NCBI RefSeq assembly: GCF_001677475.2
Contig: NZ_CP015229.1
Reading direction: 5' to 3' (one strand)
DNA: 64,000 nucleotides
Source: Escherichia coli
GTDB lineage: Bacteria > Pseudomonadota > Gammaproteobacteria > Enterobacterales > Enterobacteriaceae
A program made the translations under genes and the position numbers. Within the stretch, counting starts at the first letter, position 1, and each line of letters opens with the position of its first letter. The notes beneath the pieces were generated by a model. The model saw only the letters and a program-made list of their open reading frames with translations, was not told where the DNA came from and ran no database searches. This document shows, piece after piece, positions 2,413-10,168 of this stretch.

Positions 2413-3918
2413 ATGGAAACCAAAGATCTGATTGTGATAGGTGGCGGCATCAATGGTGCTGGTATCGCGGCAGACGCCGCTGGACGCGGTTTATCCGTGC
2501 TGATGCTGGAGGCGCAGGATCTCGCTTGTGCGACCTCTTCCGCCAGTTCAAAACTCATTCACGGTGGCCTGCGCTACCTTGAGCACTATGAATTCCGCCT
2601 GGTCAGCGAGGCGCTGGCTGAACGTGAAGTGCTACTGAAAATGGCCCCGCATATCGCCTTCCCGATGCGTTTTCGCCTGCCGCATCGTCCGCATCTGCGC
2701 CCGGCGTGGATGATTCGGATTGGTCTGTTTATGTACGATCATCTGGGTAAACGCACCAGCCTGCCGGGATCAACCGGTTTGCGTTTTGGCGCAAATTCAG
2801 TGTTAAAACCGGAAATTAAGCGCGGATTCGAATATTCCGACTGTTGGGTAGACGACGCCCGTCTGGTACTCGCCAACGCCCAGATGGTGGTGCGTAAAGG
2901 CGGTGAAGTGCTTACCCGGACTCGTGCCACTTCTGCTCGCCGCGAAAACGGCCTGTGGATTGTGGAAGCGGAAGATATCGATACCGGCAAAAAATTCACC
3001 TGGCAGGCGCGCGGCCTGGTTAATGCTACCGGCCCGTGGGTGAAACAGTTCTTCGACGACGGGATGCATCTGCCTTCGCCTTATGGCATTCGCCTGATCA
3101 AAGGCAGCCATATTGTGGTGCCGCGTGTGCATACCCAGAAGCAAGCCTACATTCTGCAAAACGAAGATAAACGTATTGTGTTCGTGATCCCGTGGATGGA
3201 CGAGTTTTCCATCATCGGCACCACCGATGTGGAATACAAAGGCGATCCAAAAGCAGTGAAGATTGAAGAGAGTGAAATCAATTACCTGCTGAAAGTGTAT
3301 AACGCGCACTTTAAAAAACAGTTAAGCCGGGACGATATCGTCTGGACCTACTCCGGCGTGCGCCCGCTGTGTGATGATGAGTCCGATTCGCCGCAGGCTA
3401 TCACTCGTGATTACACCCTTGATATCCATGATGAAAACGGCAAAGCCCCGCTGCTGTCGGTATTCGGCGGTAAGCTGACCACCTACCGCAAACTGGCGGA
3501 ACACGCGCTGGAAAAACTGACGCCATATTATCAGGGCATTGGTCCGGCGTGGACGAAAGAGAGCGTGCTGCCGGGCGGTGCCATTGAAGGCGACCGTGAC
3601 GATTACGCCGCGCGTCTGCGCCGCCGTTACCCATTCCTGACCGAATCGCTGGCACGTCATTACGCACGCACTTACGGCAGCAACAGCGAGCTGTTGCTCG
3701 GCAATGCAGGGGCGATAAGCGACCTCGGGGAGGATTTCGGTCATGAGTTCTACGAAGCGGAGCTGAAATACCTGGTGGATCACGAATGGGTCCGCCGCGC
3801 CGACGATGCCCTGTGGCGTCGCACAAAACAAGGAATGTGGCTGAATGCGGAACAACAATCTCATGTGAGTCAGTGGCTGGTGGAGTATACGCAGCAGAAG
3901 TTGTCGCTGGCGTCGTAA
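2413..3918 (+). CDS. glpD: Aerobic glycerol-3-phosphate dehydrogenase GlpD (FAD-dependent)
   Basis: Track ORF 506 aa; conserved start METKDLIVIGGGINGAG (FAD-binding GxGxxG); 501 aa. Confidence 0.95.
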   Translation: METKDLIVIGGGINGAGIAADAAGRGLSVLMLEAQDLACATSSASSKLIHGGLRYLEHYEFRLVSEALAEREVLLKMAPHIAFPMRFRLPHRPHLRPAWMIRIGLFMYDHLGKRTSLPGSTGLRFGANSVLKPEIKRGFEYSDCWVDDARLVLANAQMVVRKGGEVLTRTRATSARRENGLWIVEAEDIDTGKKFTWQARGLVNATGPWVKQFFDDGMHLPSPYGIRLIKGSHIVVPRVHTQKQAYILQNEDKRIVFVIPWMDEFSIIGTTDVEYKGDPKAVKIEESEINYLLKVYNAHFKKQLSRDDIVWTYSGVRPLCDDESDSPQAITRDYTLDIHDENGKAPLLSVFGGKLTTYRKLAEHALEKLTPYYQGIGPAWTKESVLPGGAIEGDRDDYAARLRRRYPFLTESLARHYARTYGSNSELLLGNAGAISDLGEDFGHEFYEAELKYLVDHEWVRRADDALWRRTKQGMWLNAEQQSHVSQWLVEYTQQKLSLAS

Positions 3919-3926
3919 GGATGATG

Positions 3927-3958
3927 CCCGGTTGAAGTGCAACCGGGCTATTTGGATT
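3927..3958 (+). terminator. Rho-independent terminator of glpD
   Basis: Perfect 8-bp stem cccggttg/caaccggg with 5-nt loop, followed by T-rich ctatttggatt, just after the glpD stop. Confidence 0.5.
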
Positions 3959-3969
3959 CCTTAGACTAT

Positions 3970-4575
3970 TTATTGTAAATAATTGAATAACGGCCCCTGA
4001 GCTAAAATCGCCAAACTTAAGCACGTTACCCACTCACCCCATTTCTGCCTCTGGCTTCTATTTTTGCTACACCAATGGCAATAATATCCCAATGCAAAAC
4101 CAACCTGTGCACTAATCGGGCCGACAAAATCAGTCCACGACTGCGGCCAAAAAGGGGAAAAATTCAGGGGAAGCCAGACAAACGTCAGAAAGAAATTTCG
4201 GATATTTTCCAGCAACGCTGATTTCTCTGGAGAAATATAAAGAATGAAATTCGAGAGAATTAACCAGAAATAGACCGGAGAAAAGACCAGCCAGCAATGC
4301 AGTCTGTTTTTTAATTCAGGAGGCGTTCTGCGGGAGAATTGCCAACCGATGCCCCACATTACACTGAAAAAAAATGCATATTCAACCATTAACTCAAGTT
4401 GTAATTCCTGAAGAGAAATACGCACAACCAGGAGCGGAAAGGAGAATGTTATTTCTGCCAGAAAAGTTAACGTGAATATAAGTACGGCTAAGACAATAAC
4501 CGTCGGCCATACCAATACTGGCACGATAACAAAACCGAGAATTACAGGGGGAATATAAAGCCGGAATTTAATCAT
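3970..4575 (-). CDS. Hypothetical small multi-pass membrane protein (island ORF-D), last gene of a four-gene operon
   Basis: 201-aa ORF, several long hydrophobic segments, AT-rich codon usage unlike flanking genes; start 2 nt after the stop of the upstream ORF (translational coupling). Confidence 0.6.
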   Translation of the reverse strand: MIKFRLYIPPVILGFVIVPVLVWPTVIVLAVLIFTLTFLAEITFSFPLLVVRISLQELQLELMVEYAFFFSVMWGIGWQFSRRTPPELKNRLHCWLVFSPVYFWLILSNFILYISPEKSALLENIRNFFLTFVWLPLNFSPFWPQSWTDFVGPISAQVGFALGYYCHWCSKNRSQRQKWGEWVTCLSLAILAQGPLFNYLQ

Positions 4576-4577
4576 TT

Positions 4578-5372
4578 TTATTTTCCTGGTGATTCGGATG
4601 ATGCGTCATACATCGCGCATAAACACTCATCAATCATCCAGTCGTCTACCCAGACCTGATGCTGTGTACCCTGTTCTGGCTGCTTTGGTGGGTTCTCAAT
4701 CGCCTGCCGCGCGCGTTCTTTCAGGATGGATTGATTGTTGAAGGCCCAGGCATTGATTTGGGCGGTAATGGCATTATCGATATCGTCATGGTTATCTCTG
4801 ATATAACCTTCACGATACTGGTTCAATAAACAGGCAAGTGAAGCTGCCGACCAAAAGCCGGGAATTGAATTAACGGCATCAAGCAACGGCGCAATGGCGA
4901 TATCGGCACGGAAAAACATTTCCAGCATATACTGTAATTCGACAGCTTCATCGCCGGATACCCAATCAGCCATATACTGGCAGGCAAATCGCTGCAATAT
5001 TGCCCGTTCATCCGCACGCCAGTTTTCTTTGTTGGCAAGGTTGATACGGCGCAGAGAAAAAACTTCGTGAATATTGTCAAAATACCCCTGTGCAACAAAT
5101 TCCAGTAAACGCGGAAGAAAATAGCGGACCTCATCGCTATTTTGCGGATCGGGTCCTGGGCTACTATTCCAGGCATTGATTAAGGAATACGAGATCGCTC
5201 GTAACGATGTACTCCGTAATACCTTTTGTTCCTGCTGACTCAGGCAATATTCACAACAAACCACAAATTTCTGCGGCACCGGATAGCGACGAAAAATATG
5301 ATAAATCTGCTCAATTAATGCCTGCATGGCGGGGCTGGGTTGCATAATTACCCCCTCGCCCGCTGGTCGCAT
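4578..5372 (-). CDS. Hypothetical protein, no recognisable family (island ORF-C); probably cytoplasmic
   Basis: 264-aa ORF with no TM segments; alternative start at internal Met (about 5345) lies 2 nt downstream of the ORF-B stop; tightly coupled to flanking ORFs. Confidence 0.6.
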   Translation of the reverse strand: MRPAGEGVIMQPSPAMQALIEQIYHIFRRYPVPQKFVVCCEYCLSQQEQKVLRSTSLRAISYSLINAWNSSPGPDPQNSDEVRYFLPRLLEFVAQGYFDNIHEVFSLRRINLANKENWRADERAILQRFACQYMADWVSGDEAVELQYMLEMFFRADIAIAPLLDAVNSIPGFWSAASLACLLNQYREGYIRDNHDDIDNAITAQINAWAFNNQSILKERARQAIENPPKQPEQGTQHQVWVDDWMIDECLCAMYDASSESPGK

Positions 5373-6055
5373 GTAAATGGTTGATAAACCAAACGAGCAT
5401 TCGCCGCATTCAGGCGAATAATGGCACTACGAGAGAGGGAAAAGCTGGGGCGAATGCAATAATTACAGTCCCGACAGCTATCCTCTGTGCAATTTTCCAC
5501 TGAGTAATGACGCGCGTAGAGTTTCAGTTCAGCCTGCTTATCGCGAAATCCGCGTAAACTGTTATCGCTATGAAATTTCCAGGCTTCTTTAAACACCTGA
5601 AAGATATAGACATCCTCAATCCAGGAGTCACATTTTTTAAGCGGGCGCTTTGCTATGATCACCCGCTCCGGGTTTAGCATCGCCGTAAAATGAACGGTGA
5701 AGTCATTTGTCGTATTCAGGTCACATTGAACATCTGGTACATCACTGATATAGGGGTCAAATCCAAAATCAGCACCACAGGCACAAAGACGACCGATCGT
5801 GGTGGTATCGAGGGAAAATCCCGGCCATACATTGCTGGACGTTAAGCCAATATTTAATGTGACATTATATCGAAGCAATCCCTCAAGACCGTCAGCACCG
5901 ACGAACTTTTCCCCTTCATCCAGGACCTGATTAATGAGTTGTTGAACAATACCTTCATCCCAGTATGCCGATTTGCAGTTGGCAATCGTAATATCCACGC
6001 CTGTGAAAGGATCAGTACCAGCGAGGCTTGCAAATAATGTATTAACTAATTCCAT
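5348..6055 (-). CDS. Hypothetical cysteine-cluster protein (island ORF-B), candidate metal or Fe-S binding
   Basis: 235-aa ORF with C-terminal C-x4-C-x2-C-x2-C cluster (NCTEDSCRDCNYC) and further Cys residues; not the CxxxCxxC radical-SAM spacing. Confidence 0.6.
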   Translation of the reverse strand: MELVNTLFASLAGTDPFTGVDITIANCKSAYWDEGIVQQLINQVLDEGEKFVGADGLEGLLRYNVTLNIGLTSSNVWPGFSLDTTTIGRLCACGADFGFDPYISDVPDVQCDLNTTNDFTVHFTAMLNPERVIIAKRPLKKCDSWIEDVYIFQVFKEAWKFHSDNSLRGFRDKQAELKLYARHYSVENCTEDSCRDCNYCIRPSFSLSRSAIIRLNAANARLVYQPFTCDQRARG

Positions 6056-6069
6056 TTTTATTACCCGCC

Positions 6070-7587
6070 TTAATGCAACGTTTTATACATCGGCACATAA
6101 CCCACGTCTTCTACCAAACTCTGCCCCTGCGGCGTTAAAAACCATTCAACCAGTTTTTGTGTTTCTGACGTCATATTTTCCCGCGTTACCATAAAGGCAT
6201 CGACGATATAGGGATATTTGCCATTGCGAATGTTTTCCGCAGTCGGTGCAATACCGTTAATCGCTAACAATTTGATATTCTTATCGGCATTCATTTGTGT
6301 TGCGTAATAGCGGAAGGTATAACCTATTGCGTTGTTTGTATTACGGTATTCGGCAACGACTTTAATCATTCCCTCCATCACACTTGCCACTTCGGTTTCC
6401 TGCGGCGAGATCATACGGACATTTTTCATGACCTGTAATTGCATCACCGTCTGACTGCCAGAGTCTTCCGGGCGTTGCCAGGTCTGGATCTCCTGATCGT
6501 TACCGCCAACAGTACGCCAGTTGGTAATTGCGCCACTAAAAATGTCTCGCACTTGTTGTTCAGTCAGGGAATTGACTGGATTATCAGCATTGACGATAAA
6601 AACAAATGCTTCACGGGCAAAGGGGGTGTACAGCAAAGTGACACCAGATTCCTTTGCACGTTTTTTCTGCCCACCGGAAGGTTGCGCCACGAAAATAATA
6701 TCAGCATCACCCTTAACGATTTTGTTATATGCTTCTGGCGTACGAGAGTTATCCAGATAATCCCAAACGTGAAAATCCTCTGGTATTATGCTTAACGCAT
6801 AAAAGGCAGAAGCATAAATTGGGTACGCCGCCGTGGCACCATCGATTCGCGGCCAGTTTTGCGTAAACTGAATTTGCGGTTTGCCACGCAGCGGCGTCAG
6901 TCGATTATTGAGTTTATCGGGTCGCCAGGCCCAGATATCAATATTTTCGCGTACACCAACACCAGGGTTTTGCTGCTTATATAAATGGGCCTGATACCCA
7001 GCGACAATACCAAGTAAGAGAAGTAGAAACAGGAGTAAGTTACGGCAACGTAGCCCGGACGTGCCGGTTAAAGGATGCCTTGTCGGCCAGCCGTATCCCA
7101 GCGAAAAACTGATATGCGTTCCAACGGGAATAATGACTATCCACCAGTACTCACCACCGACTAATGAGACTAACAAAACACCCAGCCAGGGAAGCATAAG
7201 ATCTGCCAACCAACCTGAAACCATCTGGCGAAATTGATAATCTGCCAGATGTAGCGTGATTATCCAGCCAACCAGGATTAATAAAGCAGGAACTAAAAAA
7301 AGACATTGTCGCCAGGCGGCTATTTCTCTGTTTTCTGGTGCGCTATCGCCCGCCCACACTCGCCCAGAGAAAAATAGCAGTAATGCGCCCAGCGTCAGCA
7401 TAAAGACGTTAAGTAGAAGATAAATTGTTGGCGTAAAGAGTAAATTGCAAAACTCAAGAATAGCGGCAAGCCCGGCCCCCAGCATGGCAATAACCGCCGC
7501 CAAAAACTGCGCCAGAATGGGGATGCCGAAAAAAGTCATTACCAGCGAGGTCAAAATCCATTTTCTGTTTTGCATTATTCTTTCCAT
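6070..7587 (-). CDS. Polytopic membrane protein fused to a PstS-like (type-2 periplasmic binding protein) phosphate/oxyanion-binding domain (island ORF-A)
   Basis: 505-aa ORF; N-terminal ~200 aa with about 6 hydrophobic helices; C-terminal ~280 aa with PstS-like motifs (AAYPIYASAF, DADIIFVAQPSGG, RPEDSGSQ, NAIGYTFRYYA); possible alternative start 4 codons downstream. Confidence 0.65.
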   Translation of the reverse strand: MERIMQNRKWILTSLVMTFFGIPILAQFLAAVIAMLGAGLAAILEFCNLLFTPTIYLLLNVFMLTLGALLLFFSGRVWAGDSAPENREIAAWRQCLFLVPALLILVGWIITLHLADYQFRQMVSGWLADLMLPWLGVLLVSLVGGEYWWIVIIPVGTHISFSLGYGWPTRHPLTGTSGLRCRNLLLFLLLLLGIVAGYQAHLYKQQNPGVGVRENIDIWAWRPDKLNNRLTPLRGKPQIQFTQNWPRIDGATAAYPIYASAFYALSIIPEDFHVWDYLDNSRTPEAYNKIVKGDADIIFVAQPSGGQKKRAKESGVTLLYTPFAREAFVFIVNADNPVNSLTEQQVRDIFSGAITNWRTVGGNDQEIQTWQRPEDSGSQTVMQLQVMKNVRMISPQETEVASVMEGMIKVVAEYRNTNNAIGYTFRYYATQMNADKNIKLLAINGIAPTAENIRNGKYPYIVDAFMVTRENMTSETQKLVEWFLTPQGQSLVEDVGYVPMYKTLH

Positions 7588-7599
7588 TCTTTCTGAATG

Positions 7600-7645
7600 G
7601 CGAAATTATACTCCCCGAGTCCCCTTGCCCCTTCTGGACACTTTT
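7600..7645 (-). promoter_or_regulatory. Candidate promoter of the island operon
   Basis: Minus-strand TATAAT (plus 'attata' about 7605-7610) roughly 20-35 nt upstream of the ORF-A start, directly downstream of the glgP terminator. Confidence 0.3.
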
Positions 7646-7659
7646 CCGAAATGATGGCG

Positions 7660-7685
7660 AAAAAAACGGGACCCTTTGGCCCCGC
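7660..7685 (-). terminator. Rho-independent terminator of glgP
   Basis: Minus-strand hairpin cggggcc-aaag-ggtcccg followed by a run of 7 U, about 20 nt after the glgP stop. Confidence 0.45.
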
Positions 7686-7702
7686 TCTATTTATTAGTGA
7701 AA

Positions 7703-10168
<2,466 letters not shown>

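Follow-up and report, generated by a model that had tools for sequence, protein, structure and literature searches.

The gap between glgP and the PstS-like gene that follows it is probably an ordinary operon boundary, consisting of an intrinsic terminator for glgP and, behind it, the own promoter of the yzgL-family gene, which would be assisted by a contact at a palindromic block. The palindrome and a -10 hexamer lie at a nearly constant distance from each other in Escherichia, Klebsiella, Salmonella and Phytobacter, and both stay with the PstS-like gene where its upstream neighbour is not glgP.

The glgP terminator and its setting

Across the 64-kb window (the whole stretch of DNA that was analysed) the chromosome is E. 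coli-like, and the list of open reading frames (ORFs) gives the gene order glpR, glpG, glpD, four ORFs, glgP, glgA, glgC, glgX, glgB and asd. glgP, the elements of the gap and the four ORFs downstream of it are all found on the minus strand. According to the ORF list and the RefSeq annotation of matching E. coli records, glgP (7703..10150) encodes glycogen phosphorylase (815 aa). It is the last gene of the glgBXCAP cluster and ends with a TAA stop codon at 7705-7703. The gene that follows it (6070..7578, using the start position of RefSeq) encodes a membrane-anchored PstS-like protein of 502-505 aa, in which an N-terminal multi-pass membrane region is fused to a PBP_like_2 domain (Pfam PF12849, E = 6e-30); its longest ORF, 7587..6070, corresponds to 505 aa. 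This gene is the full-length form of the K-12 pseudogene yzgL. Behind it, three tightly spaced ORFs of 235, 264 and 201 aa (3970..6055) run convergent to glpD, whose end is at position 3918.

The four ORFs of this cluster are separated by gaps of 14 nt and 2 nt and joined by one overlap of 25 nt, and the three downstream ORFs are probably co-transcribed with the PstS-like gene. The overlap concerns the second and third ORFs (5348-5372) and the 2-nt gap the third and fourth, an arrangement that is consistent with translational coupling within one operon. Pfam searches found no family for the three downstream ORFs and no DNA-binding domain encoded in the cluster, and no regulator gene is evident there; the second ORF of the cluster weakly resembles a YbbD-type N-terminus (NF007301, E = 1e-5). 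At the other end of the cluster, the glpD stop codon (3918) is followed by a hairpin, GCCCGGTTG-AAGTG-CAACCGGGC, and then by TATTTGG (window 3919-3969). This hairpin is the glpD terminator and lies inside the 51-nt convergent gap between glpD and the last ORF of the cluster; read on the minus strand, it is without a T tract after the stem.

The original prediction of a hairpin and a U7 terminator for glgP is borne out by the sequence, the fold energy and the pairing in orthologues. The intrinsic (Rho-independent) terminator spans 7660..7688 on the minus strand. Its stem, in which CGGGGCC (7684-7678) pairs with GGTCCCG (7673-7667), has 7 bp, of which six are G-C pairs and one is a G-U pair, and encloses a loop of 4 nt, AAAG (7677-7674). 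Seven T (7666-7660) lie directly 3' of the stem, and an A-rich stretch lies between the glgP stop codon and the hairpin. Optionally, the stem is extended by A:U pairs between AGAG (7688-7685) and the first four U. The hairpin folds with -17.1 kcal/mol (z = -3.9), and none of 200 shuffled sequences was as stable, while the single-sequence fold of the whole gap (z = -1.46) is unremarkable except for the terminator. In eight orthologues from four genera all seven stem pairs form (56 of 56 cells paired), and pairing falls to 55-63% when the 3' partner is slid by one column in the same eight sequences. Covariation consists of one both-sided change from GC to AU in Phytobacter and of another pair that alternates between GU and GC; 58 of 500 shuffles reached the observed score, so that this one compensatory event gives modest statistical support. 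The loop is variable among the orthologues; all of them retain 5-9 consecutive T. What is found is a stable GC-rich stem-loop, a U tract that abuts the stem and a stem kept in evolution.

With its 7-bp GC-rich stem, 4-nt loop, uninterrupted U7 and upstream A-rich stretch, the element resembles the canonical Rho-independent terminators of enterobacteria and has the canonical features of the efficient kind. Its position, 17 nt past the stop codon of glgP as the final gene of the operon, is typical, and there is nothing unusual about it. From these features we infer that termination takes place here in vivo and that the downstream gene would be insulated from glgP read-through, as the original prediction held. 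A scan for promoter and terminator consensus sequences listed neither the glgP terminator nor the TATAAT promoter. The terminator was presumably missed because greedy extension of the stem (AGAG:UUUU) consumes the T run, and the minimum-energy fold also includes this extension and leaves too few T. The promoter escaped the scan for lack of a -35 hexamer. Adams et al. 2021 give curated Term-seq lists for three conditions, in which 3' ends are listed for glpD and none after glgP.

Different arrangements are found behind glgP in other genomes. The hairpin falls in a segment that is swapped out in E. coli strains with a fimbrial operon at this site, and in one such strain, E. coli AR_0017 (L002:6199-6700), a long hairpin (-24.1 kcal/mol, z = -5.0) with a poor U tract replaces the glgP terminator. 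Since the canonical terminator is replaced in the fimbrial-operon strain, glgP termination may differ between E. coli lineages. In one Salmonella (L020:1703-1795) a different terminator, GGGCAG...CTGCCC plus TTTTTATT, stands behind glgP. Beyond it, a degenerate echo of the palindrome block, TATTTCAGGGAAAGG, lies directly 5' of a 174-aa ORF that has no annotated family.

Conserved elements upstream of the PstS-like gene

Within Escherichia, where we compared E. coli, E. albertii, E. whittamii and the cryptic clades, the terminator stem, the T run, the block ATTTCGGAAAAGTGTCCAG and GGAGTATAATTTC are invariant or nearly so, and substitutions concentrate in two places, the terminator loop and the G-rich sequence that separates the block from TATAAT. 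A comparison between Escherichia, Klebsiella, Salmonella and Phytobacter gives the same elements as a footprint. Mean inter-genus identity is 81% in the hairpin and T run and 39% in the 8 nt past the T run, 93% in the palindrome TTTC-N-GAAA and 40% in the 32 nt from the palindrome to the -10 hexamer, and finally 89% in the -10 hexamer and 39% in the 12 nt past it.

Two loci separate the parts of this footprint. In S. enterica (L012) the PstS-like gene lies behind a gene for an Fe-ADH; the glgP-type hairpin is absent, and the block, the 36-nt spacing and the hexamer, as TATACT, are kept. In the Salmonella locus L020 the 174-aa ORF and other sequence separate glgP from the PstS-like gene, which keeps TTTCGGATA, followed by 35 nt and then by TATCAT. 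Since the palindrome and the -10 hexamer stay with the gene at both loci, they would be its own 5' signals, that is its own promoter, and the hairpin with the T run would be the 3' signal of glgP. This comparison argues for a self-contained promoter rather than for dependence on read-through from glgP. The motif is missing from distant homologues at unrelated loci, in Budviciaceae (L016), in Leclercia (L017) and at ruvC-ruvA in Salmonella (L019). Therefore, the footprint is specific to the glgP-glpD lineage of the gene.

The -10 hexamer TATAAT is located at 7605..7610 on the minus strand, as seen in the sequence and in the orthologue alignment. It begins 49 nt past the last T of the T run behind glgP, in agreement with the original prediction of a TATAAT within about 50 nt on the same strand, and is a conserved -10 element positioned for the next gene. 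The hexamer reads TATAAT in Escherichia and Phytobacter (6/6), TATACT in Klebsiella and Salmonella, and TATCAT in one Salmonella (5/6). TATAAT is depleted in the window, with 7 copies on both strands versus 18.4 +/- 3.8 expected from dinucleotide-preserving shuffles, and the count expected on the same strand of the 115-nt spacer is about 0.01-0.02. Escherichia, Klebsiella and S. enterica share an A at 7 nt beyond the hexamer, and the position of the hexamer and the alignment therefore predict the transcription start at the A in position 7598 (minus strand), which puts the centre of the palindrome at about -49. By calculation with glpD at 3,562,013-3,563,518, the predicted start would correspond to about 3,564,028 on the minus strand of MG1655 (U00096.3), and 3' ends in the U tract (7664-7660) to about 3,564,091-3,564,095; the glpD 3' end of the Term-seq lists, 3,563,562, agrees with this conversion.

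The candidate promoter of the original prediction stands with respect to its -10 element and falls short of a complete sigma-70 consensus. At any spacing of 15-19, the best match to a -35 hexamer is at most 3/6 in all seven orthologues tested, and the TG of an extended -10 element at -15/-14 is found in none of the orthologues tested, which have GA, GC, GT or CT instead. Lacking both elements in every orthologue, the promoter probably needs an upstream contact, and it may be weak or silent unless activated. The place of the -35 hexamer is occupied by a G-rich spacer (7611..7638, minus strand), whose length is conserved and whose sequence is not; the entire 32 nt from the palindrome to the -10 hexamer (7642-7611) consist of 41% G. 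Since length and G bias are kept and the sequence is not, the spacer itself is unlikely to be a binding site.

Several other promoter types were considered and rejected. The one minus-strand hit of the consensus scan, TCGCCA-18-AATAAT (7603-7574), is not conserved, and its start would fall inside the ORF. For a sigma-54 promoter (TGGCAC-N5-TTGCW; GG-N10-GC) the sole GG..GC match (8/11, 7586-7571) lies across the start codon and is not kept in Klebsiella. A PhoB-dependent promoter was considered because of the PstS-like product; allowing up to 3 mismatches, no Pho box (CTGTCATAWAWCTGTCAY) was found in the whole window, and the spacer in which a Pho box would sit is not conserved. Boxes for ECF/sigma-E, sigma-32, CRP, CpxR, GlpR and MalT were compared by eye, and either their matching bases lie in the non-conserved spacer or the match is poor. 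In its general layout, a good -10 element with an upstream site at a fixed distance, the promoter resembles activator-dependent sigma-70 promoters without a -35 hexamer, such as those that depend on MalT, on PhoB or on CRP in the class II manner. It differs from these in that there is no Pho box and that the G-rich spacer has no conserved MalT-box-like sequence. Moreover, the site has its centre at about -49 and does not overlap the -35 region.

The upstream site is a conserved block, ATTTCGGAAAAGTG (7639..7652, minus strand), which is defined by its inter-genus identity and its fixed spacing. It contains the palindrome TTTC-G-GAAA (7651-7643), whose centre is at 7647. In the orthologue alignment the arms TTTC and GAAA are invariant and the central base is G or A. 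Because the arms are invariant while the central base varies, the palindrome suggests a site for a dimeric DNA-binding protein. From its centre to the first T of the -10 hexamer the distance is 36 nt in nine of eleven sequences and 35 nt in the other two; in a further Salmonella locus, the twelfth orthologue, it is also 35 nt. The composite of palindrome and -10 hexamer has one copy in the window and none in shuffles. Judged by its conservation, the block probably binds a protein, which could be a regulator or the alpha subunit of RNA polymerase. A centre at -49 corresponds to no textbook class I or class II activator position. The sole look-alike that a literature search with the motif string returned is the CodY box of Firmicutes (AATTTTCWGAAAATT), which has a palindromic core, TTTC-W-GAAA, in common with the block. 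Of the 15 positions of the CodY box consensus, 12 agree with the sequence of Klebsiella. To our knowledge CodY is a Gram-positive regulator without an enterobacterial orthologue, and the likeness is therefore a resemblance only and does not indicate membership. Tentatively, and with somewhat less than even confidence, we propose that the palindrome is the operator of a putative new regulator that would control the membrane-anchored PstS-like family at the hypervariable glgP-glpD locus. The family under this proposed operator is often tandemly duplicated.

The -10 hexamer is followed by AGAATGGAAAGAATAATG, which holds candidate start codons at 7587, 7578 and 7575. The start annotated in RefSeq lies 125 nt beyond the stop codon of glgP and corresponds to window position 7578. 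Here this codon reads ATA, and other Escherichia have ATG; the ATG at 7575 comes next. In Klebsiella, the frame that begins at the equivalent of the first ATG runs into a stop codon, and the conserved N-terminus begins at a later ATG. The true start codon is probably the one at 7578 or 7575, and not the first ATG at 7587. A ribosome-binding site, which was also part of the original prediction, is present as a Shine-Dalgarno-like GGA (7583..7585, minus strand), 7 nt before the ATG at 7575, and is weak.

Distribution and age of the locus

A 501-nt query that runs from the 3' part of glgP across the gap into the 5' part of the next gene matches 5425 of 5426 complete E. coli genomes and is covered to at least 80% in 4585 of them. 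About 840 complete genomes match only to 5 nt past the glgP stop codon (window 7698); AR_0017, the sole example examined among these, carries a chaperone-usher fimbrial operon at the 3' side of glgP. In K-12 derivatives the intergenic region is essentially identical to the gap analysed here and is followed by the truncated pseudogene yzgL (b3427), of which only the first ~74 codons are left. Unlike in K-12, the PstS-like gene in our window is full length and has three more ORFs behind it. At least 80% of the whole four-gene cluster is present in 2431 of the 5426 E. coli genomes; others have the first gene only, the last three genes only, or the yzgL stub. In sequence, the cluster (3970-7587) is ~92% identical to that of most E. 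coli and at least 99% identical in just 38 genomes. The adjacent end of glgP is ~95% identical, and the cluster locus is thus more diverged than its surroundings.

Homologues of the PstS-like protein with 50-55% identity are encoded at the same site between glgP and glpD in Klebsiella oxytoca, in Salmonella enterica subsp. salamae and in Phytobacter. At this site, therefore, both the first gene and the region upstream of it are ancestral. The original prediction had regarded the downstream unit as an island. We rejected a horizontally acquired island with its own promoter, as the first gene is widespread in E. coli and syntenic in three other genera, and its promoter shares this ancestry. Only the genes behind the first gene vary, and they make up its variable cargo. 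A 2026 paper describes the glpD-glgP interval as a structurally variable "hotspot A", where the stretch yzgL-glgP-glgA is preserved intact.

In Salmonella, Intestinirhabdus and Klebsiella (L013:4492-7524; L014:383-3500; L018:1-4003; L020:2501-5542) two or three diverged PstS-like paralogues stand in tandem, and DUF4279 and YbbD_head ORFs often come after them. They look like a diversifying gene family at the glgP-glpD site. A 477-nt contig (L009) of a Terrisporobacter mayombei assembly encodes the first 29 residues of the E. coli yzgL-family protein with 97% identity. The coverage of this contig is very low, and it almost certainly represents contaminating E. coli DNA in the assembly.

Readings of the gap and their meaning for the yzgL family

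For STM3528, which we take to be the Salmonella LT2 orthologue of the PstS-like gene, a literature search found no papers. Concerning the gap itself, no mapped transcription start or 3' end was retrieved from published data sets. In the supplements of Ettwiller 2016, Yan 2018, Kim 2012 and Cho 2014 yzgL and glgP were not found; these tables are possibly keyed differently or truncated, and we do not count this as negative evidence. In a microarray study yzgL is listed as changed (-2.0) in the table of the CpxR regulon, and the paper mentions no glg gene. In another paper yzgL is listed as a target of the sRNA OmrA. These two listings are weak hints that a yzgL RNA exists in K-12, where yzgL has also been used as a "neutral" insertion site.

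According to the reading that we prefer, the transcripts of the glg operon would end at the intrinsic terminator, 17-43 nt past the glgP stop codon (hairpin 7684-7667, U7 7666-7660). The PstS-like gene, yzgL in K-12, would be driven by its own sigma-70-type promoter with a consensus -10 hexamer, no -35 hexamer and the palindrome at about -49. The palindromic block would most likely supply the contact that the missing -35 hexamer cannot provide, through either a bound activator or the alpha subunit of the polymerase. Transcription would begin at A7598, so that a leader of about 20-23 nt would precede the start codon at 7578 or 7575.

It is also conceivable that the promoter is real and that the palindrome is no activator site. 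It might instead be a UP-like contact for the alpha subunit in a weak constitutive promoter, which is the main alternative to an activator site, or a site for a repressor or a nucleoid protein. The block is the only A/T-rich stretch, with T3 and A4 tracts, amid G+C-rich surroundings, it loosely resembles the core of the UP-element consensus (TTTT-NNN-AAAA), and the lack of an evident regulator gene in the cluster would fit as well. However, invariant arms around a variable centre are typical of a dimeric DNA-binding protein and not of a generic A/T tract, and the T and A tracts are shifted 3-4 bp upstream with respect to the UP-element register. We therefore regard a promoter whose palindrome is no activator site as unlikely, although it is the most plausible of the rivals discussed here.

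Less probable still is the absence of any functional promoter, in which case the downstream genes would be read through from glgP or would be essentially silent, and the TATAAT would be fortuitous. With the genes on one strand and a short gap between them, read-through would be possible, neither a -35 hexamer nor an extended -10 element is present, and the published supplements yielded no start site. This is difficult to reconcile with the occurrence of TATAAT, TATACT or TATCAT at a fixed distance from the palindrome in four genera, in surroundings of ~40% identity, with the persistence of palindrome and hexamer behind neighbours other than glgP, and with a glgP terminator that is canonical for efficient termination. 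Finally, an RNA fold might in principle explain why the two conserved elements keep a fixed spacing, the block and the hexamer being parts of a structured leader or attenuator that is read from an upstream start. This reading is largely refuted, and we give it hardly any weight. From the T run to the ATG, RNAalifold on seven orthologues gave a consensus structure of 3 pairs only, with -0.62 kcal/mol, and Rfam at E <= 1 has no match in the gap, its only hits being two chance snoRNA-like ones inside glgP. The conservation is therefore at the DNA level. Moreover, the fold of the gap is unremarkable outside the terminator, and both elements lie downstream of that strong terminator.

With an ordinary operon boundary as the preferred reading, the conserved palindrome is the only mildly new element of an otherwise routine arrangement, and the significance of the finding lies mainly in annotation. 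It would fix the 3' boundary of the glgBXCAP transcription unit, correct the likely start codon of the PstS-like gene and provide a testable promoter for the yzgL-family gene, with a predicted start at 7598, which is still intact in K-12. The supposed island is an old, decaying and diversifying locus and not a recent insertion, and the palindrome may be a small lead on the regulation of the yzgL protein family.
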